From contig JADFSP010000005.1 of assembly GCA_022560695.1 (NCBI GenBank), forward strand, positions 296 to 64,295: a DNA stretch of 64,000 nt. Reading direction: 5' to 3'. Source of the stretch: Pseudomonadota bacterium. GTDB taxonomy: Bacteria; Pseudomonadota; Gammaproteobacteria; Steroidobacterales; Woeseiaceae. The notes beneath the pieces were generated by a model. The model saw only the letters and a program-made list of their open reading frames with translations. It made no database searches and was not told where the DNA came from. Below, one piece after another: positions 8,710-56,227 of this stretch (the stretch's first letter is position 1; each line of letters begins with the position of its first letter). The translations under genes were made by a program, and so were the position numbers.

Positions 8710-9186
8710 ATGTTCAGCCTGATTCTGTACGAACCCGAGATCCCGCCCAACACGGGCAATATCATTCGTCTGTGCGCAAACACGGGCGTCAGACTGCATC
8801 TTGTCGAGCCGCTGGGTTTTGAACTCGACGAGCCGCGCCTCAAGCGTGCCGGCCTGGATTACCGTGAGTTTGCACAGGTGACGACGCACTCGTCGCTCGA
8901 CAAATGTCTGGATGCTTTGGAAAGTCCGAGGGTGTTCGCGCTGAGCACTCGCGGCCAGACGTGTCATGACACTCCGGTCTATGCAGCGCACGACGCATTC
9001 CTGCTGGGCCCGGAAACGCGCGGCCTTCCCGCCGAGGTGCTTGAATCGTTACCACCCGAACAACGGCTCAGACTGCCGTTGCGCAAGGGCAGCCGCAGTC
9101 TGAACCTGTCGAACGTTGCCGCTGTCATTATCTACGAGGCGTGGCGGCAGCTCGACTTCGAGGGTGCCGTGCGATCGGGCGGCTAG
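8710..9186 (+). CDS. trmL: tRNA (cytidine/uridine-2'-O)-methyltransferase TrmL
   Basis: MFSLILYEPEIPPNTGNIIRLCANTG...SLNLSNVAAVIIYEAWRQ SPOUT motifs. Internal ATG at 8710. Confidence 0.85.
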   Translation: MFSLILYEPEIPPNTGNIIRLCANTGVRLHLVEPLGFELDEPRLKRAGLDYREFAQVTTHSSLDKCLDALESPRVFALSTRGQTCHDTPVYAAHDAFLLGPETRGLPAEVLESLPPEQRLRLPLRKGSRSLNLSNVAAVIIYEAWRQLDFEGAVRSGG

Positions 9187-10142
9187 CGAACCAGAATGGT
9201 CTGCGGGTGAAACGTAAACCAGGCAAACCAGAACAAACGAATTGGCGCGTAGCGTTCGCCGGAGCTACCGTCCTCGAGGCTCACCGAGCCGTCGTCTTTT
9301 AACGTAACTGTCAGCGTGCGACCGCTTTGCTCATAGGCGTAGCTGCCGTGTTTCTGCAACAGCGACTCAGTGAACGCGACCGGCTGCCCAGAGAGCTCAA
9401 ATCCGTAAACAACAGTCTTGGGCGGTATGCGGTCGTCTTCGCGCATGACCGGAAACATGGTTGCCGTGGACCGGCGGTAACTGGCGTATGGATCGCTGGC
9501 GTAGTCCTTGTCAAAGCCCGTGTCCGTGGACAACACGAGCGTGTCGGGATGCGCCGTGCGCCAGCGCGACCAGCGCGTTGTCGTTACCGGGATAAGCTTG
9601 AGCTTCGTGCCCGTCATCGGACCGACGATGCCGGTAGCCTCGATCTGGTCCCAGAGCGTTTCCGTCGCCCGGTCGTAGAGTACGAGATCGCTGTTGTAGA
9701 GCACGCCGGACACGCCAAATTCGGTAACCCGGCTGCCGATATCGCGATGAATGGCGACGCCGGAGCCACACAGGGGACACCACGTAATCGCTATCGGCGT
9801 TCCCGCGATCGTGTCGTTAACGATCTCGTGGTGATCGAGGATGCGCGACGGATAAGCGCGATGCTCGCCTTTCCAGGAGATGGCGATAACGACATCGTCG
9901 TCCACAATGTGGCTCGCGCTGTCCGCGTCAACAAACTTCGGATTGTCGATCGACGGTATGCAATCGCGAGCCGGGCAGCCCTGATGCAGGTCGGCGAGGG
10001 CAACGCTCTTCGCCGTCGTCTCATCGAAGCCGAAGGTCTCGCCAAGGATATCGACTTCAAAGGTGCGCTGCGCCAGGGACGCACCCGCCACAACGACAGC
10101 GGCGGCGCCGGCAATTACGCCGGCAAAGGTGCGGTGGTTCAT
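9183..10142 (-). CDS. DUF3179 domain protein (secreted)
   Basis: Signal peptide. ITWCPLCGSGVAIHR and the surrounding pattern are typical of DUF3179. Confidence 0.65.
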   Translation of the reverse strand: MNHRTFAGVIAGAAAVVVAGASLAQRTFEVDILGETFGFDETTAKSVALADLHQGCPARDCIPSIDNPKFVDADSASHIVDDDVVIAISWKGEHRAYPSRILDHHEIVNDTIAGTPIAITWCPLCGSGVAIHRDIGSRVTEFGVSGVLYNSDLVLYDRATETLWDQIEATGIVGPMTGTKLKLIPVTTTRWSRWRTAHPDTLVLSTDTGFDKDYASDPYASYRRSTATMFPVMREDDRIPPKTVVYGFELSGQPVAFTESLLQKHGSYAYEQSGRTLTVTLKDDGSVSLEDGSSGERYAPIRLFWFAWFTFHPQTILVR

Positions 10143-11684: not shown

Positions 11685-11948
11685 TCAGTCCTCGGCGAGC
11701 AATTTGTCCAATTCTCCGCTCACGTCGAGCGCAGAGAGATCATCGAAGCCGCCAACGTGAGTATCGCCGATGAATATTTGCGGCACCGACCGGCGGCCGC
11801 TTAGTCGCTGCATTTCGGCGCGTCGCTGCGGATCGGCAGAGACCGAGATGTCTTCAAATTCTATGCCTCTTCGCGTCAACAACATGCGCGCTGCCATGCA
11901 ATAGGCGCAGCCGTCATTGCCGTAAATTTTCACTGTCGCGCTGCTCAC
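11685..11948 (-). CDS. grxC: glutaredoxin 3
   Basis: 87 aa; CAYC active site, SVPQIFIG and GGFDDL. Confidence 0.9.
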   Translation of the reverse strand: MSSATVKIYGNDGCAYCMAARMLLTRRGIEFEDISVSADPQRRAEMQRLSGRRSVPQIFIGDTHVGGFDDLSALDVSGELDKLLAED

Positions 11949-11964
11949 CGGTACTCCGTGGTGC

Positions 11965-12408
11965 TTACTTCTTGCTCTTGGTCTTTTTTCCGGTGACGAC
12001 CGGAAGACCGGCCTGACTCCAGGCCGTCATGCCACCCTTGAGGCCATAGACGCTCTTGAAGCCGGAGTTGCGCAGTGAATTGGCCGCCTTCGTCGAGGTC
12101 ACGCCCGTCTCGCAGACGGTCACTATCGGCTTTTTGGCGAGCTTGCTGACCTGGTCCATGCGCGCGTCGAGCTCGTCGTAAGGGATGTGCCTGGCGCTCA
12201 CGATGTGGCCACGTGCAAATGCTTCGGCGCTGCGCAAGTCGATGACCGTGGCATCCTTGTTGATCAACGCGACCGCAGCGGTCGGCTCAACGGCCACGAC
12301 GCTGCGCGCTTTGCGCCGTAACTCAGTGATGATCAGCACAAAAAAGCTGACCAGCAGGGCAAACACCAGCAACGTGTGATTGCCCGCGAACTCGAGATAT
12401 TTATCCAT
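11965..12408 (-). CDS. membrane-anchored rhodanese-domain protein (YibN-like)
   Basis: N-terminal TM helix plus a rhodanese fold with a CETG active-site loop. Sits in the conserved yibN-grxC-secB-gpsA order. Confidence 0.8.
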   Translation of the reverse strand: MDKYLEFAGNHTLLVFALLVSFFVLIITELRRKARSVVAVEPTAAVALINKDATVIDLRSAEAFARGHIVSARHIPYDELDARMDQVSKLAKKPIVTVCETGVTSTKAANSLRNSGFKSVYGLKGGMTAWSQAGLPVVTGKKTKSKK

Positions 12409-12565
12409 GAATCAACATAAGTGGCGCCGAGGAGGGGCGCCGTGGTGGCGGCAAAGGCGGCAGTATAGCAGCGTGTCCGGCCGGAACTACCCCGATGCGA
12501 GCGGCCGCGACGGAAGTTGCCGCAACAATTCTCCACCGGGTGCAAACCCACTACACTGTGCGGCC

Positions 12566-13735
12566 ATGAGAAGGCCTGCATTCTGTTTGCTCGTGCTGGT
12601 TGCGGTGCAGTCGCCGACGCCTTTGGCATCCGGGGCGGAGGCCGACGGCGAGCTCGCCAAAGTCAGGGAGCTTGAACTCGCGGAGGTCCGTGAGCGCATT
12701 AGCGAGCTCAAGAAAAGCATGGATGCGAGGGCCGCGGATCGTGATCGACTGACGGCCGAGCTTCAGAACGCTGAGATCGAGATTTCCGGAAAGCGCATCC
12801 GGCTCAGGGAAATCGAGCGCGAGCGCCAGTACACCGCAAGGCGCAAGGTTGACCTTGATGCAGAGATGACCGAGAGAGCGGCCGCGCTTGATGAAGAGTC
12901 AACCGAGCTGGCGGCGCAGGTCCGCGCGGCGTACATGAGCGGTAGCCATGAAAAAATAAGGATGCTGCTGAATCAGGACGACCCCGCAACTCTGGGTCGC
13001 CTGATCAGCTATTACGCGTACCTCAACCAGTATCGCGCCAGAAACATCGAGACAGTGTCGGCTCGTATCCGCGAGCTGGTGCAACTGCAGGGCCGCGTGG
13101 TGGCCGAGGAGGCCCGACTTTCCGACATTCGTTCGCGGCGGCAGGTGGAGCTGACAAGAGTCAGCACGGCGCAGGAGCGGCGGCAGCAATTGCTGGCCAG
13201 GCTGAACAGCAAGATTGCCGACGAGGGCACCGAAATCGATCGTCTGGCGGCACAGGAAAAGGACCTTGCGCGCCTGATTTCCGAGCTGACGAGCATCCTG
13301 TCGGATTACCCGATCAGCTCCGAAAACCCTTTCAGCGAACATCGCGGCCAACTTACATGGCCCGTCGCCGGTACCTTACTGCACGATTTCGGTCAGCCGC
13401 GTGTCGGTGGAAAGTTGAAATGGAATGGTGTTGTGCTGGCGGCGCCGCGGGGCCGCGAGGTGCGCTCCGTATACCACGGACGCGTGGTATTTGCAGACTG
13501 GCTTGCCGGCATGGGTCTGTTGGTTATCGTCGAACACGGCGAGGGCTATATGACGCTTTATGGCTATAACGAGACGATACTCAAGAATACCGGCGATTGG
13601 GTCGCGCCCGGCGACGTTATTGCGACGGTCGGCGACAGCGGCGGACAGACACAAGCCGGTCTCTATTTCGAGGTGCGTCATGGCACGGCCCCCGTGGATC
13701 CGAATCGTTGGGTCACGCGCCGCCCCGGCGGCTAA
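12566..13735 (+). CDS. envC: murein hydrolase activator EnvC (coiled-coil + LytM/M23 domain)
   Basis: Signal peptide from the ATG at 12566, a long coiled-coil, and a C-terminal M23-like domain (GYMTLYGYNETILKNTGDWV..GD.IATVG). Confidence 0.85.
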   Translation: MRRPAFCLLVLVAVQSPTPLASGAEADGELAKVRELELAEVRERISELKKSMDARAADRDRLTAELQNAEIEISGKRIRLREIERERQYTARRKVDLDAEMTERAAALDEESTELAAQVRAAYMSGSHEKIRMLLNQDDPATLGRLISYYAYLNQYRARNIETVSARIRELVQLQGRVVAEEARLSDIRSRRQVELTRVSTAQERRQQLLARLNSKIADEGTEIDRLAAQEKDLARLISELTSILSDYPISSENPFSEHRGQLTWPVAGTLLHDFGQPRVGGKLKWNGVVLAAPRGREVRSVYHGRVVFADWLAGMGLLVIVEHGEGYMTLYGYNETILKNTGDWVAPGDVIATVGDSGGQTQAGLYFEVRHGTAPVDPNRWVTRRPGG

Positions 13736-13737
13736 GG

Positions 13738-13825
13738 AAAAAGTGGGGTCGAACCGAAGTTTTTGGCAAGAACTGGTGATTAAAAAACTCCATCGAACAA
13801 AAACTTCGGTTCGACCCCACTTTTT
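13738..13825. repeat. REP-like palindrome (family A): 27-bp arms AAAAAGTGGGGTCGAACCGAAGTTTTT
   Basis: The left arm 13738-13764 is perfectly complementary to 13800-13825. Between envC and ctp. Confidence 0.9.
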
Positions 13826-13921
13826 CAACCGTGACGGCCGTGCATAGGCGCATAATCGCCGCTGTGCTATCGTCGAGTGACACGTCCGGGCGGCCGTCGG
13901 GGCGGGGTACTGGAGATGTGT

Positions 13922-15142
13922 ATGTCATTGAAGACCAGAGCAATTCTGGTTGTTGTTATCGGCATGGTCATGGGACTCAGCCTTTCGATTGGCGGGGGAC
14001 TTCTGTCACGGGCGGACAGGCCCGATGCCGATGAACTGGCCTGGGAGCAGGCACGGCTGTTCGCCGAGGTCATGGCGCGGGTCAAGCAGGAGTACATCGA
14101 GCCGATCGATGATAACGAGCTTCTCGAAAGCGCCATTCGCGGCATGATTAACAATCTCGACGCGCACTCCCAATATCTCGACGCGGACGAATATCGCGAC
14201 ATCCGCATCAGCACAACAGGCAATTATTCGGGCGTCGGAATCGAAGTCGGTCAGGTTGACGGCGCCATCAGGGTCATTACACCGATTGCCGGTTCGCCCG
14301 CCGCGCGTTCCGGCATGCGCAGCGGCGACCAGATCATCGCGGTCGATGGCGTATCGGTCGAAGAAAGCAATATTCACGACATCGTCGACCGCATGCGCGG
14401 CCGGCCAGGGTCGAAAATCAGCATCACAGTCCTGCGTGACGGCGACGCGATCATCCATGACATGCGTCGAGAGATCATACGCGTCGCGAGCGTGCACTAC
14501 GAAATTTTGAGCCCGTCGTTCGGCTATGTCCGCCTGAGCCAGTTCAGCGAGGCGACGGCCCGTGAATTGAGCCGGGCGATCGACGCCATGCAGGACACGA
14601 ACGACGGCATGCTCGATGGCCTCATCCTGGACTTGCGTAACAATCCGGGCGGCGTGCTCGATGCAGCCGTCGATGTATCGGATCTGTTTCTGGACAGCGG
14701 CATCATTGTCACGGCGGATGGGCGCACAAGCGATGCGAGATTTACGCGGTCAGCGCATCGAGGTGACGTCCTGGATGGCGCTGAGCTCGTCATCCTTGTT
14801 AACAAGGGTTCGGCATCGGCCTCTGAAATTGTTGCCGGCGCGCTGCAGGATCATGGCCGCGCTGTCGTTATCGGTACCACGACATTCGGCAAGGGCCTCG
14901 TGCAAACCGTAATGCCGTTATCGCAGGGGCGTGCGATCAAGTTGACGACGTCCCGATACTACACTCCGTCGGGCGACTCCATTCACGAGACGGGAATAAC
15001 ACCTGACGTCTATGTCGAAGGCACGCCGGGCCATCCGGACCTGAGCTTGGGTGCTCAAATCGATCGGGAAAATGATGCGCAGCTAATCGAGGCGCTGGCC
15101 CGCCTGCAGCGGCGGCGCGTAATGCACAGTAACGCGCAATGA
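13922..15142 (+). CDS. ctpA: S41 carboxy-terminal processing protease (PDZ domain)
   Basis: PDZ segment (GIEVG..DG.IRVITPIAGSPAARSGMRSGDQI) and the S41 catalytic region (LVNKGSASASEIVAGALQD...TFGKGLVQ). Start may be 13916 or 13922. Confidence 0.9.
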   Translation: MSLKTRAILVVVIGMVMGLSLSIGGGLLSRADRPDADELAWEQARLFAEVMARVKQEYIEPIDDNELLESAIRGMINNLDAHSQYLDADEYRDIRISTTGNYSGVGIEVGQVDGAIRVITPIAGSPAARSGMRSGDQIIAVDGVSVEESNIHDIVDRMRGRPGSKISITVLRDGDAIIHDMRREIIRVASVHYEILSPSFGYVRLSQFSEATARELSRAIDAMQDTNDGMLDGLILDLRNNPGGVLDAAVDVSDLFLDSGIIVTADGRTSDARFTRSAHRGDVLDGAELVILVNKGSASASEIVAGALQDHGRAVVIGTTTFGKGLVQTVMPLSQGRAIKLTTSRYYTPSGDSIHETGITPDVYVEGTPGHPDLSLGAQIDRENDAQLIEALARLQRRRVMHSNAQ

Positions 15143-15966
15143 TGCCGGGCGTATTCCACCTCGCAGTGGTCCTGCTGTTGTTCGTGTCGCAATGCCTGGC
15201 GGAGTCGCCGCCGCGCATCGCAATTATCATCGATGATCTCGGTTACCAGCTCGATGCGGGTCGACGTGTCATCGATCTGCCGGGACCCGTTGTCTGTGCC
15301 ATCCTGCCCGGGACACCGCGCGCCAGGCAACTGGCAAAACGTGCACACGACAATGGCAAGGAAGTGTTGTTGCATCTGCCCTTGCAGGCGATCGAGCACA
15401 GTGGGCCGCCGGAGCCTGGCGGCATTACCCTCGATATGAGCCGGGAACGTTTTGCGGCGGTGTTTGCCGAAGCGATCGAGTCCGTCCCGTATGCGGCGGG
15501 CGTCAACAGCCACCGCGGCAGCCTGTTGACGCGCCATCCCGGGCACATGCTCTGGCTCATGGAGGATATCCGCGCGCATGAGGGGCTGTTCTTTGTCGAC
15601 AGCTACACGACGCACGCAAGCGTTGCCTTGAGAATCGCGGCGGAAACCGGCGTCGGGGCATTGAAACGGGATGTTTTTCTGGACGCGGACCCCGCGCCGG
15701 AGGCGATTCGGCGAGAACTGGAGCGCCTTAAGGCCATAGCCACCCAGCGCGGTCACGCCATTGCGATTGCGCATCCCTACACGGCGACGCTGGAGATTCT
15801 GGAGTATGAACTGCCGCGGCTGCGAGCCGCGGGATTCGAGCTCGTGCCGGTCAGTGAACTGATCGATGCACCAGCTTCGTCAGCCGACATGGCTTCCGCA
15901 GGAAAATCGGTGAACCGTAGCGGACCGGGCGACTCAAAGACAAAAAGCAGCGTGAGAGGGACATGA
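15139..15966 (+). CDS. yibQ: divergent polysaccharide deacetylase family protein (YibQ)
   Basis: IAIIIDDLGY...LLHLPLQ...GVNSHRGS pattern. Overlaps the ctp stop. Confidence 0.8.
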   Translation: MMPGVFHLAVVLLLFVSQCLAESPPRIAIIIDDLGYQLDAGRRVIDLPGPVVCAILPGTPRARQLAKRAHDNGKEVLLHLPLQAIEHSGPPEPGGITLDMSRERFAAVFAEAIESVPYAAGVNSHRGSLLTRHPGHMLWLMEDIRAHEGLFFVDSYTTHASVALRIAAETGVGALKRDVFLDADPAPEAIRRELERLKAIATQRGHAIAIAHPYTATLEILEYELPRLRAAGFELVPVSELIDAPASSADMASAGKSVNRSGPGDSKTKSSVRGT

Positions 15967-16829
15967 TCAGTAGATTGTCAGTGACAATAAAGGCCGCCTG
16001 TATCCTGATGCCAATCGTATTTGGGTCGGCAGTGAGCCTCGCCGGGGACGATGGTGTCAAAACGTTGTTTACAAACGACCGCGGAACGAGCGTTGCGCAG
16101 GAGGACGGGATTGCCTGCACGATGCAATACAGTCCCGTTTGCGGCGTCGATGGCCAGACATACAGTAACGAGTGTGTCGCAGGCGCCGCCGGGGTGGAGG
16201 TGGCCAGGCAGGGAATTTGCGCGAACACCAGCAATGGTTGCCCGGAGGACCTGGATCCGGTTTGCGGCGTCGACGGCAATACCTACATCAACGAATGTTT
16301 TGCAGGCAAGTCGGGCATCGAGATCGCAGGCCTCGGCGCCTGCACGCCACGTGGTTGCCCGAGCGTCCGTGATCCGGTTTGCGGCATGAACGGCCGCACT
16401 TACATCAATCGTTGCGAGGCAAACGCCGAACGCATCCCGGTACAGCGCCACAGCAATTGCGATATTGGGAATTGCCCGAAAGTGTTCGCCCCGGTGTGCG
16501 GCGATGACGGCGAGAGTTATGACAACGCCTGCTACGCCGACAAGGCCAGTGTTGCGACGTTCACCGAGGGCATGTGCAATCAGCGCCGATGCCCTGCTCT
16601 GTTTGTTCCGGTCTGCGGATCCGACAGCGTAACCTACGGCAATGCCTGCTACGCCGAACGGCGCGGTATCCGCATAGACTATGCGGGTGTCTGTGAAGAT
16701 CAGGGACGCAACTGTCCGCGAGCCTATCTGCCCGTTTGCGGCATGGACGGCGTTACCTATGACAACGACTGTCAGCTGGGCAACGCCGGCGTCACGAAAG
16801 CCTATGCCGGCAGTTGCCTGGGCGACTAG
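15963..16829 (+). CDS. secreted protein with six tandem Kazal-like serine-protease-inhibitor domains
   Basis: Signal peptide, then six repeats of C-x7-C-x10-C-x14-C with a PVCG.DG.TY.N.C core (aa 52-86, 93-127, 132-166, 171-205, 210-244, 251-285). The ATGA start overlaps the yibQ stop. Confidence 0.85.
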   Translation: MISRLSVTIKAACILMPIVFGSAVSLAGDDGVKTLFTNDRGTSVAQEDGIACTMQYSPVCGVDGQTYSNECVAGAAGVEVARQGICANTSNGCPEDLDPVCGVDGNTYINECFAGKSGIEIAGLGACTPRGCPSVRDPVCGMNGRTYINRCEANAERIPVQRHSNCDIGNCPKVFAPVCGDDGESYDNACYADKASVATFTEGMCNQRRCPALFVPVCGSDSVTYGNACYAERRGIRIDYAGVCEDQGRNCPRAYLPVCGMDGVTYDNDCQLGNAGVTKAYAGSCLGD

Positions 16830-16834
16830 CGAAA

Positions 16835-16862
16835 AGAAAAACTGCGGTTCGACCCCTTTTCC
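16835..16862. repeat. solo arm of REP family A
   Basis: aaaaactgcggttcgacccctttt matches the right arm of the 13.8, 38.2 and 56.1 kb palindromes. No partner arm is visible. Confidence 0.7.
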
Positions 16863-16864
16863 GA

Positions 16865-18661
16865 CTACCAGCCGCAGCTGCGGCCTTTGTTCTGCTCCCG
16901 CAGCCAGGCCATCAGGGGCGCGAAGTAATCGATGATGGCACTGGCGTCCATCTCGCGCGTACCGGTCAGTTTCTCGAGAGTGTCTTGCCAGGGCTTGCTT
17001 TGGCCGACCTCGAGCATCGCCTGCAGGCGCGCGCCGGCTTCCTTGCTGCCATACAAAGAGCAGGCGTGTAGTTCGCCTTCATGACCGGCTACTGCGCACA
17101 GCGCGCGCTGGAACTGGAACTGCAGGATCCGCGCGAGAAAGTAACGCGTGTAGGAAACATTCGACGGAATGTGATATTTGGCGCCCGGGTCGAAGTCGGC
17201 CTCGGTGCGTGTGACGGGCGGGGCGATGCCCTGGTAGCGCGTGCGTAACTCCCACCACGTCTTGTTGTAGTCTGCGGGCCGAATCTCGCCCGAGAATACG
17301 TCCCAGCGCCACTCGTCGATGAGCTTGCCGAACGGCAGGAAGGCGATTTTGTCCAGGGCCCGCATCATTTGCCGATTGATGACGGCCTCGCGACTTTGCG
17401 CTGCCGATGCGACGAGACCCACTTCGAAAAGATACCCGGGCGTCATCGACAAGGTCACGGTGTCGCCGATTGCTTCGTGGAAACCGGAGTGCGCGCCGCC
17501 CTGGAACAACGGTGGCTGATCCTTGTAAGCACCCTGGTAATAATTGTGGCCAAGCTCGTGGTAGATAACACGCAGCTCATCATAGGTTTGCTTGATGCAC
17601 ATCTTGATGCGCAGATCGTTGCCGCCATCGAGACCCCAGGCACTCGCGTGACAAGCGACTTCGCGGTCGGGCGGCTTCGAAAACATCGAGCGCTCCCAAA
17701 ACGTGTCAGGCAGTCGCGGCAGGCCCAGTGACACGTAAAAGCTTTCGGCCGAGCGCACCATCTCCTGTGGCGAGTACGCTTTCGTCTTCAGTGTCCTGTC
17801 GACGTCGAGATCCGACTCGCCGGGGTACGGCTCCATGATGTCGTAGATGAAGCCCCACTCCTGCGACCACATATTGCCCAGAAGATGCGCGGGTATCGGC
17901 TGGTCCTGCGGTACCTTGTCTTCGCCATAGAAGTCGCCCAGTTTGGCGCGTACGTGACAGTGCAGCTCTTCGTAAAGCGGCTTTACCTGCTCCCAGAGTC
18001 GCGATGCTTCTTGCTGAAAATCCGCGTCACTCATGTCGTAACCGGAGCGCCACATCGCGCCGAGGTCGCTGTAACCCAGTTCGCGCGCGCCTTCGTTCGT
18101 CAGCTCGACGAAATGCTGGTACTTGTCGCGCATGGGCGGGGACACCGTGCGCCAGCCCTGCCATGCCTCGAGCAACTCATCGTAATCACGACTTTGCGCC
18201 ATGATGTCCTCGAGTTCCGGCCGCGACAGGCAGTCGCCGTCGTTGCGGCAATACTTGCCCTCGCCGTACATGCTGGCGAGGTCTGTCAGGATCCGGGAAA
18301 GTTGCTTGCGCTTCGCCGCGTCATTGGGCGCAGGTTTTGTCGTGCCGAGCTTCAGAAGATCGAGTGCGCGACGTGTTTGAGGCGCAAGTTCCTGGCCATC
18401 GTATTGCAATGACTGGGCAACCATGCTGCTGTGCCACTCCGCATAATGCTCGTTGGCCCGCGCGCTGGCGGCAGCGGTATCCTCGGTAATGTTGGTTCTC
18501 CACTCCCAGTCGGCCGCGCCGACCTCTTTGCGCAATTCCTTGAGCTCACTGTTGGCACGTGCAACGAAATCATCCGCCGTCTCATCGGTGGCTGGCGGCG
18601 AACAAGCCGTGAGGAATGCGACGAGCGATGCGCTCGTAACAATGAGTGCGAGATTTTTCAT
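16865..18661 (-). CDS. M2 family peptidyl-dipeptidase (angiotensin-converting-enzyme-like), lipoprotein
   Basis: 598 aa. HELGH zinc motif followed by GFHEAIGD (ACE-type third ligand region). Lipobox LTAC in the signal peptide. Confidence 0.85.
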   Translation of the reverse strand: MKNLALIVTSASLVAFLTACSPPATDETADDFVARANSELKELRKEVGAADWEWRTNITEDTAAASARANEHYAEWHSSMVAQSLQYDGQELAPQTRRALDLLKLGTTKPAPNDAAKRKQLSRILTDLASMYGEGKYCRNDGDCLSRPELEDIMAQSRDYDELLEAWQGWRTVSPPMRDKYQHFVELTNEGARELGYSDLGAMWRSGYDMSDADFQQEASRLWEQVKPLYEELHCHVRAKLGDFYGEDKVPQDQPIPAHLLGNMWSQEWGFIYDIMEPYPGESDLDVDRTLKTKAYSPQEMVRSAESFYVSLGLPRLPDTFWERSMFSKPPDREVACHASAWGLDGGNDLRIKMCIKQTYDELRVIYHELGHNYYQGAYKDQPPLFQGGAHSGFHEAIGDTVTLSMTPGYLFEVGLVASAAQSREAVINRQMMRALDKIAFLPFGKLIDEWRWDVFSGEIRPADYNKTWWELRTRYQGIAPPVTRTEADFDPGAKYHIPSNVSYTRYFLARILQFQFQRALCAVAGHEGELHACSLYGSKEAGARLQAMLEVGQSKPWQDTLEKLTGTREMDASAIIDYFAPLMAWLREQNKGRSCGW

Positions 18662-18675
18662 GAAAAATTCCTGAG

Positions 18676-20490
18676 TTAGTGCACGCCGTGCATGCCGCGT
18701 TTTAGCAACGGCGAAATCACGAGCATAAACACGCCGAAAGCGACGCCGAAGTACATGAGGAACTCGAACAGCTCCGTGTACCTGGCGAGTGCCGTGGCTA
18801 TGTCGGCCGTTTCGCCACCGTCGACGCTGATAGCGGCCATCTTGCCCATGCGTGTCGCGACCGTTTCCGATAGTGCGGTGGCCAGAAACCAGGTTCCCAT
18901 GCTGACGCCGACCACTTTACCGATCGACAGCTTCGTCACCGCGGAAAGGCCGACCGGCGAGAGACACAGCTCGCCGGTCGTATGCAGCAGGTAAGCGAGC
19001 GCCAGCCAGATCGCCGCGACCTGACCGGATTGGTCCGGGAAGTGCGAGCCAATGACCAGCGCACCAAAACCGATGCCAACCTGAATGATGCCGAGGGCGA
19101 ACTTCATGGGCGTCGACGGCTCCAGATTGTGTTTTGCCAGCCAGATCCACAGCGTTGCGAACGGAATGGCGAGCAAAAAGATGAATATTGCGTTTAGCGA
19201 CCCGAATTGTGCGGCCGTAAAGGTAATGCCCCCGACCTCACGATCGACCACGCGGTCCGCGTACAGCGTCATTGATCCGGCCGATTGCTCGAACAATGCC
19301 CAGAAAACCACGGTTGAAAGTATCAGGATCATGAGCACGACCGTGCGGCCAAATTCCGCGGAGTTATGCGTCCTGAATCCGTAGATGACGAAGCCGGTGA
19401 TCACGAGCATTGCAGCGTACACGGCGTACTCGGCGAGATTTTCGTTACCGGGCAGGAAACCCAGACTCGCACCGGCTGCGTAAATGCCGATCACGATTGC
19501 GCTGGCGGCAAATGTGTACGCCGTTGTATTGCTGCTCCCGGTCTTGCGGTAGACCATCGAGTAGAGAACGATAGCGACGATCGATACGATCAGGAACACG
19601 TTCTGCGTCAACAAGACGACCGGTTCGTGCTGCACGAGCAGCCAAATAACGCTGAGCACGGGCAGGCTCAACAAGTAGATAGACCACTCGCGGTTGACCG
19701 GGCCGAACACTTTTTCTCTGAGGCTTTCGGCGTCTGCCGGTTCCGCATGACCCTTCAGGTATTTCTGGCCGTACATGAACGTGCACAAACCGAAGATCAT
19801 GCCGATGCCTGCCGCGCCAAAGCCGTACTTCCAGCCGAAAGTCTCGCCGAGGTAGCCGCATAACAACGTGGCCGTGAAGGAGCCGATATTGATGCCCATG
19901 TAGAAAATCGTGAAACCCGAATCACGGCGCGGATCATCTTTCGCGTAAAGCTTGCCGACGATTGTGGATATGTTCGGCTTCAGGTAGCCAACGCCCATGA
20001 CGATCAGCGCCAGCGCAAAATAAAATACGTTCAGCGCGGCCGTGTCACGGAAGGTAATGCTTTCCGTCAGCACGGTGCCCGCGGTCAGGATCTCACCCGA
20101 CGCAAGCGCCAGGCTTTCCGTCAGCTTCGTTCCCGCGGCGTAGAAAATCGCCTTGTGGCCCTCGACGGCCATCAGAAGGTGACCGATGGCCAGCAGGGTG
20201 CCGCCAAACAGTACTGACTTGCGCATGCCGAGGTAGCGATCGGCGATCAGGCCACCGATGACGGGCAGCGCATACACGAGGCCCGCATAGGAGCCGAGCA
20301 CGTCGAGGCCCGCTTCGTCGCTGAACAAGTGGTATTTGGTCAGGTACAGAAGCAACAGGTACTTCATTCCGTAGAATGAGAAGCGCTCCCAGAGTTCGGT
20401 CGTGAAACAGACGTAAAGGCCTTTCGGATGGCCCCAGAGTTCCGCGTCGTGCGCGTAGTTGTCCGCCGTGACGGCATCGGAGTCACTCAT
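18676..20490 (-). CDS. POT/PTR2 family di-/tripeptide:proton symporter
   Basis: 604 aa polytopic protein with the ELWERFSFYGMKYLLLLYL PTR2 signature. Confidence 0.85.
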   Translation of the reverse strand: MSDSDAVTADNYAHDAELWGHPKGLYVCFTTELWERFSFYGMKYLLLLYLTKYHLFSDEAGLDVLGSYAGLVYALPVIGGLIADRYLGMRKSVLFGGTLLAIGHLLMAVEGHKAIFYAAGTKLTESLALASGEILTAGTVLTESITFRDTAALNVFYFALALIVMGVGYLKPNISTIVGKLYAKDDPRRDSGFTIFYMGINIGSFTATLLCGYLGETFGWKYGFGAAGIGMIFGLCTFMYGQKYLKGHAEPADAESLREKVFGPVNREWSIYLLSLPVLSVIWLLVQHEPVVLLTQNVFLIVSIVAIVLYSMVYRKTGSSNTTAYTFAASAIVIGIYAAGASLGFLPGNENLAEYAVYAAMLVITGFVIYGFRTHNSAEFGRTVVLMILILSTVVFWALFEQSAGSMTLYADRVVDREVGGITFTAAQFGSLNAIFIFLLAIPFATLWIWLAKHNLEPSTPMKFALGIIQVGIGFGALVIGSHFPDQSGQVAAIWLALAYLLHTTGELCLSPVGLSAVTKLSIGKVVGVSMGTWFLATALSETVATRMGKMAAISVDGGETADIATALARYTELFEFLMYFGVAFGVFMLVISPLLKRGMHGVH

Positions 20491-38220: not shown

Positions 38221-38334
38221 AAAGTGGGGTCGAACCGCAGTTTTTCTTGGAATTCGGCGAAATCACCTTTCCGCGTACGAACGCAAAAGTGCGGTTCGAC
38301 CCCACTTTCCAAAAGTGCGGTTCGACCCCACTTT
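38221..38334. repeat. REP family A: one left arm plus two tandem right arms
   Basis: aaagtggggtcgaaccgcagttttt (38221-38245) faces aaaagtgcggttcgaccccacttt at 38285-38308 and again at 38311-38334. Confidence 0.9.
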
Positions 38335-56144: not shown

Positions 56145-56227
56145 AGTAGGGTCGAACCGAAGTTTTCTCAGCAAGGCCCCGGGAATGACGCGCAGCTTTA
56201 AGAAAACTTCGGTTCGACCCTACTTTT
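56143..56227. repeat. REP family A palindrome
   Basis: aaagtagggtcgaaccgaagttttct (56143-56168) is complementary to agaaaacttcggttcgaccctactttt (56201-56227). Confidence 0.9.

Follow-up and report, generated by a model that had tools for sequence, protein, structure and literature searches.

A six-domain Kazal-type protein encoded behind ctp and yibQ in Woeseiaceae: a candidate envelope protease inhibitor

Kazal inhibitors are textbook animal proteins. What, then, might a protein built from six Kazal domains be doing in a gammaproteobacterium, at the end of a group of cell envelope genes? This question is raised by a 64-kb stretch of DNA (contig JADFSP010000005.1, family Woeseiaceae; hereafter the window), in which a gene at 15963-16829 on the + strand (stop codon included) encodes a 288-aa Kazal protein immediately downstream of genes for an EnvC-like amidase activator, the S41 protease Ctp and a homologue of YibQ, also known as SddA. 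On balance, and with confidence only a little better than even, we favour the view that the product is an exported, probably periplasmic, six-headed standard-mechanism inhibitor of S1 and S8 proteases, which is made together with Ctp and SddA and shields envelope proteins. Below we set out the evidence from family, fold, reactive-site conservation and gene order, together with the alternatives that the same evidence brings into play.

Six Kazal domains in a predicted exported protein

The open reading frame (ORF), taken from the ORF list for the window, matched only families of the Kazal domain (MEROPS I1). Pfam Kazal_1 (PF00050) scored 167.4 bits (E = 6.4e-50) over six stretches and Kazal_2 (PF07648) scored 128.1 bits, both far above their cutoffs of 21 and 22.8 bits respectively, and there was no Pfam match to the ecotin family. 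The signal-peptide-like N-terminus and the six repeats described in the original prediction are both present. Each repeat is exactly C-x7-C-x10-C-x14-C, the linkers between repeats are four to six residues long and a three-residue tail follows the last cysteine. This cysteine motif occurs six times in the Kazal frame and nowhere else in a six-frame translation of the whole window which, together with the hidden Markov model (HMM) E-value of 6e-50, rules out a chance or low-complexity artefact. Pairwise identity between the repeats is only 37-57%, and so they stem from old duplications rather than from a recent tandem array; the residues P, V, C, G, Y and N, along with the four cysteines, are invariant across all six.

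Nearly all matches in a sequence search of the PDB were protease inhibitors. Ovomucoid was the best (1yu6_C, E = 3.9e-12), and the others included CrSPI-1 (5.5e-9), agrin (3.6e-8), SPINK1, rhodniin, leech-derived tryptase inhibitor (LDTI) and GmSPI-2. The HMMER alignment to 1yu6_C places C52-T53-M54-Q55-Y56 of the window protein on C16-T17-L18-E19-Y20, and N69 on N33 (we take these to be the residue numbers of turkey ovomucoid third domain, OMTKY3). Because this alignment fixes the register, P1 is the second residue after the first cysteine of each repeat, as had been proposed, and the six P1 residues that had been read from the sequence (Met, Glu, Ser, Lys, Ala and Arg) are all confirmed as M54, E95, S134, K173, A212 and R253. 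Domain 1 (aa 52-86; 16116-16220), which is supported by the motif, by the ovomucoid alignment and by a single-domain model, has T-M-Q at P2-P1-P1' with its P1 codon at 16122-16124. The remaining five are defined by the motif and, like domain 1, lie on the + strand: domain 2 (aa 93-127; 16239-16343) with P-E-D and a P1 codon at 16245-16247, domain 3 (aa 132-166; 16356-16460) with P-S-V and 16362-16364, domain 4 (aa 171-205; 16473-16577) with P-K-V and 16479-16481, domain 5 (aa 210-244; 16590-16694) with P-A-L and 16596-16598, and domain 6 (aa 251-285; 16713-16817) with P-R-A and 16719-16721, followed by the tail LGD. The canonical loop, with Cys at P3, Thr or Pro at P2, P1, P1', an aromatic residue at P2' and the spacer Asn, is found throughout, apart from domain 3 in which P2' is Arg.

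The domains are unusual in their cysteines. Both the motif and the ovomucoid alignment confirm that each repeat keeps four of the six classical cysteines: the residues aligned to Cys8 and Cys38 of OMTKY3 are not cysteines, and the classical framework (Cys1-Cys5, Cys2-Cys4, Cys3-Cys6) is absent. With four cysteines per repeat, these are therefore not classical Kazal domains. The missing pair is the classical Cys1 and Cys5, leaving Cys2-Cys4 and Cys3-Cys6 as the likely bridges, and the fold match discussed below points to the same arrangement (first with third and second with fourth cysteine in each repeat). By the 7/10/14 spacing found in all six repeats, the protein belongs with the two-disulfide Kazal subgroup. 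HMM, sequence and fold all support the suggestion of an atypical Kazal domain with two disulfides, and there is a solved precedent with identical spacing in GmSPI-2 from wax-moth silk, which has cysteines at positions 5, 13, 24 and 39, disulfides 5-24 and 13-39, and strong inhibitory activity towards subtilisin and proteinase K (PMC4169406). Domain 1 of CrSPI-1 also has two disulfides only (PMC4169406).

Structure prediction gives the same picture. The AlphaFold2 model of the full-length protein has a mean predicted local distance difference test (pLDDT) score of 81.7, with the domains at 85-97 and each folded as beta-beta-alpha-beta, while a model of a single domain scores 86.9. When the single-domain model was compared with the PDB using Foldseek, the top 50 matches were all Kazal-domain structures. 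The best neighbour was GmSPI-2 (4hgu; E = 2.4e-4, query-normalised template modelling score (TMq) 0.76, root mean square deviation (rmsd) 0.9 Å, 51% identity) and the next was LDTI bound to trypsin (1an1_I; TMq 0.83, rmsd 0.5 Å); infestin 2f3c_I gave a TMq of 0.85. After 4hgu came LDTI, the infestins, rhodniin, pancreatic secretory trypsin inhibitor (PSTI/SPINK1) and OMTKY3 complexes, with many complexes of OMTKY3 and SPINK1 among the lower-ranked matches. Four inhibitor structures, either free (4hgu, 2kmo, 2erw) or protease-bound (1ldt), are among the top five, and rank 5 is held by the two-domain inhibitor rhodniin (TMq 0.82, target-normalised score 0.36).

Comparison with the known inhibitors shows where the window protein stands. 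GmSPI-2 shares with its domains the C-x7-C-x10-C-x14-C spacing, the lack of the classical Cys1-Cys5 bridge and the beta-beta-alpha-beta fold, at 49-51% identity and an rmsd of 0.9-1.0 Å to the models. It is, however, a single 36-residue domain from insect silk with proven activity, whereas the window protein, a predicted inhibitor, strings six domains together behind a Sec leader and is encoded in a bacterial envelope operon. Tandem short non-classical Kazal domains with short linkers and a C-P-X motif, as in the window, are found in CrSPI-1 (3pis and 3qtl, the latter entitled as a dual-inhibition complex of CrSPI-1 with subtilisin), LDTI (1an1), rhodniin (1tbq), infestin (2f3c/2erw) and dipetalogastin-like proteins. 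CrSPI-1 and these multi-headed arthropod and leech inhibitors match the window protein with a sequence E-value of 5.5e-9 and a structural rmsd of 0.5-1.3 Å, but they come from animal haemolymph, saliva or gut and most of their domains have three disulfides, whereas all six domains of the gammaproteobacterial protein would have two. Ovomucoid and ovoinhibitor (OMTKY3) share the register C-T-P1-x-Y...P-x-C-G...T-Y-x-N-x-C and are likewise multi-headed with a P1 that differs from domain to domain. Their classical domains contain six cysteines in about 56 residues, in contrast to the window domains which span 35 residues from first to last cysteine and lack Cys1 and Cys5.

Export is predicted from the N-terminus. 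A Sec signal peptide covering aa 1-27 (15963-16043, + strand; MISRLSVTIKAACILMPIVFGSAVSLA, followed by GD) has a hydrophobic core at about aa 10-24, and judged from this core and from the N-termini of orthologues, cleavage would fall after aa 27. Among the orthologues whose called N-terminus is complete, most have a comparable hydrophobic leader. Between the leader and the first Kazal repeat there is a linker of about 24 residues. A lipoprotein is ruled out, the sole early cysteine (C13, in K-A-A-C) being incompatible with a lipobox.

Orthologues and their reactive sites

A protein search returned 918 homologues. The closest are unnamed metagenomic proteins: apart from a fragment with 98% identity, they match at 54-70% identity along all or most of the query. 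Further homologues comprise one named Woeseiaceae protein and, at about 27-40% identity, proteins from Myxococcota, insects, birds, oomycetes and chytrids. The exact sequence of the window protein was absent from a collection of 15 billion proteins. NCBI names the Woeseiaceae and Myxococcota homologues 'Kazal-type serine protease inhibitor domain-containing protein'. The statement that characterised bacterial examples are scarce is thus correct for characterised proteins, but homologues are numerous in bacterial metagenome-assembled genomes (MAGs) and carry automatic NCBI names. When one genome per GTDB species was scanned, 125 relatives came to light, and the loci of the best 80 (56-77% identity, all from MAGs) were taken forward for analysis. 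Most of these are labelled as Woeseiaceae or as unclassified Gammaproteobacteria or Proteobacteria, with a few labelled Chromatiales or uncultured bacterium. At least 80 species-level genomes carry the six-domain Kazal gene.

Reactive-site conservation was assessed in 78 distinct six-domain sequences (77 orthologues and the window protein), using column entropies as the measure of variability since synonymous sites are likely saturated at 56-77% orthologue identity. The 7/10/14 spacing is kept in 465 of 468 domains (six domains in 78 sequences), and the spacer Asn, Pro or Thr at P2 and Tyr or Phe at P2' are conserved. The P1 residue itself has a different history in each domain. It is Met in 56 of the 78 sequences in domain 1, Glu in 73 in domain 2 (where P3' is Asp in 77) and Ser, Gly or Ala in 76 in domain 3 (where P4-P3-P2 is G-C-P in all). 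In domain 4 it is variable (entropy 2.6 bits; Lys in 38) with P4, P2 and P1' invariant, and it is similarly variable in domain 5 (2.5 bits; Asn in 30, Arg in 20) with P5, P2 and P2' invariant. Domain 6 has Arg in 49, Asp in 11 and Asn in 7. In domains 4 and 5, P1 ranks with the most variable columns, whereas P2, P1', P2' and P3' hardly vary, as would suit an exposed specificity residue carried by a fixed scaffold. For domains 1-3, the conservation of P1 suggests fixed targets. The 'deliberately broad spectrum' that was originally proposed is plausible but has partial support only: P1 drifts in domains 4-6 and is fairly conserved in domains 1-3 (Met, Glu, Ser/Gly).

Two features outside the domains can be mentioned here. 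The tail after the last cysteine is three residues long in 77 of 81 sequences (80 orthologues and the window protein) and is commonly [ILV]-G-D. In 19-24 of the 81 sequences, depending on the stringency of a regular expression that missed several near-variants, the signal peptide is followed by a short conserved motif, G-D-V-D-L-Q-S-I-F-P, which lies some 10-20 residues ahead of domain 1 (for example in loci L010, L021, L045 and L054). The window version is degenerate (DDGVKTLFTN; aa 28-37, nt 16044-16073). This motif may be a docking peptide.

In the reading that we favour, each domain would present a rigid canonical loop, C-(T/P)-P1-x-(Y/F)-x-P-V-C-G, braced by the conserved spacer Asn, and would act as a tight-binding, substrate-like (Laskowski-type) inhibitor of serine endopeptidases in the chymotrypsin (S1) and subtilisin (S8) clans. 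With Met, Glu, Ser, Lys, Ala and Arg at P1, hydrophobic, acidic, small and basic specificities would all be covered, and the role of the protein would be to shield envelope proteins, either against the digestive proteases that the cell itself exports, while in transit, or against foreign ones in protein-rich sediment. A comparable task falls to ecotin (MEROPS I11), the E. coli periplasmic pan-serine-protease inhibitor which guards the envelope against S1-type proteases. The likeness is one of proposed role only (an exported bacterial inhibitor, envelope protection), because sequence and fold are unrelated; moreover, ecotin is a dimer with one flexible loop of broad specificity, whereas the window protein would gain its breadth from six rigid heads. 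Plausible targets are at hand: S1 and S8 peptidases are present in every Woeseiales genome examined, and Woeseia oceani displays trypsin- and chymotrypsin-like activity (PMC7082342). Peptidase inhibitors were explicitly left out of the report of that study (PMC7082342).

Several considerations weigh against this interpretation. Glu, Ser/Gly and Ala are poor P1 residues for most S1 and S8 enzymes, and the strict conservation of Glu in domain 2 and of Ser/Gly in domain 3 suggests specific partners. The linkers of four to six residues may prevent simultaneous occupancy of all six heads. No S1 or S8 gene was found among the 20 large ORFs in the window, the protein may act in the periplasm or outside the cell, and a search of the literature on bacterial, Woeseia or prokaryotic Kazal proteins found no experimental study. 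Finally, the Kazal-like modules of follistatin, agrin and SPARC are not protease inhibitors, and follistatins were the top matches when the whole-chain model was submitted to Foldseek, with a TM-score of only about 0.19.

These last points bear on a different idea, namely that the array is a non-inhibitory, disulfide-stabilised binding or spacer module in the style of follistatin, agrin or SPARC, possibly one that binds glycan strands or tethers a divisome or peptidoglycan component near SddA. Consistent with this are the follistatin complexes at the top of the whole-chain search, the agrin sequence match (E = 3.6e-8), the fusion of the array to the glycan-strand deacetylase in one lineage (see below), and the presence at P1 of Glu, Ser and Ala, which are weak P1 residues for common proteases. 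However, the whole-chain matches at TM about 0.19 reflect only the multi-domain nature of both chains, and for the single domain the top matches are inhibitors, with follistatin-type modules ranking lower (FSTL-3 2kcx at 25, Fstl1 6jza at 42 and the hevin FS-EC structure 7kbu at 50). Moreover, Pfam found none of the FOLN/EGF-like subdomain of a follistatin module in the Kazal protein, whose repeats are joined by no more than four to six residues, and the full canonical loop and spacer Asn are kept in all six domains and across orthologues. We therefore regard a non-inhibitory function as quite unlikely.

The Kazal gene at the 3' end of the ctp-yibQ unit

The setting of the gene is as distinctive as its product. 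Upstream, on the same strand, are an EnvC-like M23/LytM amidase activator (12566-13735, probable start at 12566; Pfam Peptidase_M23 and PRK11637, although this NCBIfam EnvC model scores 194 bits, under its cutoff of 270), the S41 C-terminal processing protease Ctp with a PDZ domain (13877-15142, start maybe ATG 13916 or 13922; Pfam Peptidase_S41 187 bits, TIGR00225 326 bits) and the 275-aa YibQ/SddA homologue (15139-15966; Pfam PF04748 Polysacc_deac_2, 241 bits), which has its own signal peptide. The ctp stop and yibQ start overlap as ATGA (15139-15142) and, as the original prediction noted, so do the yibQ stop and the Kazal start (15963-15966); direct reading of the sequence also reveals a Shine-Dalgarno-like GAGAGGG (15954-15960, + strand) within the 3' end of yibQ. 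Between envC and ctp there is a spacing of about 140-185 nt, which holds a perfect 29-bp inverted repeat with a 32-nt spacer (13737-13826). This repeat, a copy of a dispersed intergenic element, could be a terminator or attenuator that splits envC from ctp-yibQ-Kazal. Given the gap and the repeat, tight coupling is confined to ctp, yibQ and the Kazal gene, with envC excluded. The stretch 11900-17200 yielded no sigma-70-like site.

Pseudomonas aeruginosa has these three genes in identical order: envC-ctpA-PA5135(yibQ) has been mapped as an operon that contains an internal promoter for ctpA and ends with yibQ (PMC12569750). In E. coli, YibQ is SddA, a periplasmic deacetylase of denuded glycan strands; its gene is co-expressed with envC, and the protein is a substrate that the S41 protease Prc degrades (bioRxiv 10.1101/2025.02.18.638797). 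In both the P. aeruginosa operon and E. coli envC-sddA, yibQ/sddA comes last (PMC12569750), whereas in the window the Kazal gene lies beyond it.

This arrangement is widely conserved among the best 80 relatives. All 75 testable loci have a YibQ homologue directly 5' of the Kazal gene, the other five having been left out of the count as they have less than 1.2 kb of upstream sequence, and Ctp and EnvC precede YibQ wherever the contig is long enough. A Kazal gene 3' of yibQ was encountered only in Woeseiaceae and in unclassified gammaproteobacterial relatives. The survey of the yibQ 3' end thus bears out the adjacency, but not a universal start/stop overlap: the junction is an overlap of 1-4 nt in 8 of the 75 loci, a gap of 2-165 nt in 39 and an insert of 440-690 nt in 26, with 23 of these inserts containing a gene for an S-adenosylmethionine (SAM) methyltransferase of about 205 aa. 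Such insertions indicate that the 3' end of the operon tolerates unrelated genes; in the window no methyltransferase gene lies between yibQ and the Kazal gene. The inserted enzyme is a class I SAM-dependent methyltransferase present at this site in about one third of Woeseiaceae genomes (for example L005 7353-7970, L006 7212-7823 and L016 7276-7890). One relative, P0005, is a chimera in which a methyltransferase N-terminus is joined to a Kazal array that lacks domain 1 and the beginning of domain 2; a deletion or an assembly frameshift is its probable origin.

The closest association between the two proteins is an in-frame SddA::Kazal fusion of 501 aa (P0002; L001 2849-4354, also L002 and L003) which is identical in three independent samples. 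At the joint, ...SELFR of SddA runs directly onto DIDGRSIFP..., the fusion's version of the post-leader motif; the YibQ tail and the Kazal signal peptide are deleted and the mature array is whole. The envC and ctp genes are still upstream, while downstream a gene for an extracytoplasmic function (ECF)-type sigma-70 factor replaces the angiotensin-converting enzyme (ACE) homologue. With the leaderless mature array placed on the C-terminus of the signal-peptide-bearing SddA, the two would occupy one compartment.

Taken with the common strand, ATGA overlaps and conserved adjacency, and allowing for the 26 loci with inserts of 440-690 nt, these observations assign the Kazal gene to a probable transcription unit with ctp and sddA and support its co-expression with them. 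The original prediction had included EnvC in this group. The part concerning Ctp and YibQ is upheld by the overlaps, by the adjacency in 75 of 75 loci and by the fusion, but envC is set apart by the 29-bp inverted repeat. In the reading that we favour, the Kazal gene, placed at the 3' end of a cell-division and peptidoglycan cluster, would share its transcript with ctp and sddA/yibQ and probably be coupled to them in translation as well, and from this position the protein would be made whenever envelope is built.

The Kazal gene also appears to be at home in this genome. Its GC content (0.597) and third-position GC content (GC3; 0.696) equal those of the neighbouring genes which, together with its place in the core chromosome and its conserved site, identifies it as an old, vertically inherited addition to the ctp-yibQ unit and a core gene of the Woeseiaceae. 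Recent horizontal acquisition or carriage on a mobile element is ruled out by the same composition, by the core housekeeping surroundings and by the presence of the gene at the same site in at least 75 genomes. A general bacterial linkage of Kazal genes to ctp and yibQ is also ruled out, since the genes from a Myxococcota MAG (P0045) and from another lineage (P0085) are in unrelated contexts. The latter encodes a four-domain, four-cysteine Kazal protein which follows a PDZ protein and a YkuD L,D-transpeptidase (L089 3590-7191); this cell-wall neighbourhood in an unrelated lineage may be a coincidence.

Could the array instead serve as a dedicated partner of the S41 Ctp and/or SddA of its own operon, tuning septal peptidoglycan processing? 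It might restrain Ctp, or it might protect SddA, for instance by capping the C-terminal end that is read by PDZ-guided tail-specific proteases. Gene order speaks for this proposal, with ctp-yibQ linkage in 75 of 75 testable loci, ATGA coupling in the window and a fusion, seen in three independent samples, in which precisely the SddA tail and the Kazal signal peptide are lost. The highly conserved loops of domains 2, 3 and 5 are as expected for a fixed endogenous partner, and no serine protease gene other than ctp was found near the locus. Tail-specific proteases prefer apolar C-terminal tails, and the acidic C-terminus of the array, commonly [ILV]-G-D, is unlike these. SddA is moreover a Prc substrate in E. 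coli (bioRxiv 10.1101/2025.02.18.638797). On the other hand, six different heads, three of them with a drifting P1, would be superfluous for one target, and the literature searched contains no canonical inhibitor of S41 enzymes; indeed, we know of no Laskowski-type inhibitor for this Ser-Lys-dyad family. A cytoplasmic-type SAM methyltransferase separates yibQ from the Kazal gene in 23 loci, synteny within a single family can stem from vertical inheritance alone, and the multi-Kazal genes of other bacteria (P0045, P0085) are not beside ctp or yibQ. We consider a partnership of this kind unlikely, and the narrower proposition that the array is a component of septal peptidoglycan processing which controls proteolysis by Ctp, through direct inhibition or protection of SddA, to be decidedly doubtful.

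The tolerance of the operon 3' end for an unrelated gene is also in keeping with a third alternative, in which the site merely offers convenient constitutive expression and the protein is released past the outer membrane, where it neutralises the serine proteases of competitors or grazers on sediment grains. The family and fold evidence applies here just as well, and the P1 drift in domains 4-6 is what might be expected from changing external targets. Woeseiaceae live attached in protein-degrading benthic communities, and GmSPI-2, the nearest relative with a solved structure, is secreted into silk and inhibits the microbial proteases subtilisin and proteinase K (PMC4169406). Nevertheless, the leader is of the Sec type only, with no secretion-system signal or dedicated exporter nearby, and domains 1-3 have a conserved P1. 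At least in the species with the fusion, attachment to periplasmic SddA also speaks for a protein that stays in the periplasm. Extracellular action consequently strikes us as improbable, and we retain the periplasmic shield as our favoured explanation.

Flanking sequences and implications for Woeseiaceae

Several features flanking the gene deserve a brief description. The core of the dispersed intergenic repeat, CGGTTCGACCCC, has 8 matches in the window against 0.56 expected, usually in inverted pairs, with copies at 13737-13765/13798-13826, 16845-16856, 38226-38329 and 56148-56221. The copy between envC and ctp is flanked by A/T runs and resembles a repetitive extragenic palindrome (REP) or a terminator, and the core is similar to a tRNA T-arm. 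The copy at 16845-16856 (+ strand) is a solo half-copy, which begins 16 nt past the Kazal stop. It lies in the 35-nt spacer that separates the stop codons of the Kazal gene and of the convergent gene for the ACE homologue (16865-18661, - strand; 598 aa, Peptidase_M2 743 bits, profile positions 3-581 of 581), a protein with a lipoprotein-type leader (...FLTAC). Directly after this is a di/tripeptide transporter of the proton-dependent oligopeptide transporter family (POT/PTR2; 18676-20490, - strand), and many Woeseiaceae loci likewise have an ACE and POT pair, 2-8 kb downstream of the Kazal gene. Both proteins have a function in peptide scavenging; a Kazal domain would not be expected to target ACE, which is a metallopeptidase. 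Further upstream, a protein of the DUF3179 family (domain of unknown function 3179) with a signal peptide (9183-10142, - strand) is encoded beside gpsA-secB-grxC-rhodanese, in a block that is syntenic in the two relatives examined (L005 and L006).

Bacterial Kazal proteins are already known as automatic annotations in databases. New features here are the host, an architecture of six uniform domains with two disulfides each, and a conserved site after sddA, with occasional fusion, in a ctp operon. The two-disulfide, 35-residue domains with their natural P1 variation are compact scaffolds for inhibitor engineering, and the 261-residue mature protein offers a defined and easily expressed target with which to ask what Kazal domains do in bacteria. 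The Woeseiaceae are, according to the literature, widespread and abundant in marine sediments, and the gene is a conserved part of their core genome. If the array does act with Ctp and SddA, it would add an extra regulatory layer to septal cell-wall cleavage and, should it control Ctp, it would be the first inhibitor of canonical type for an S41 protease, and also the first Kazal protein with a part in the division of bacterial cells. If it is instead a periplasmic shield of six specificities, as we favour, it would represent a second, independent solution to the problem solved by ecotin, and would bear on how protein-degrading benthic bacteria survive their own proteases and those of their neighbours.

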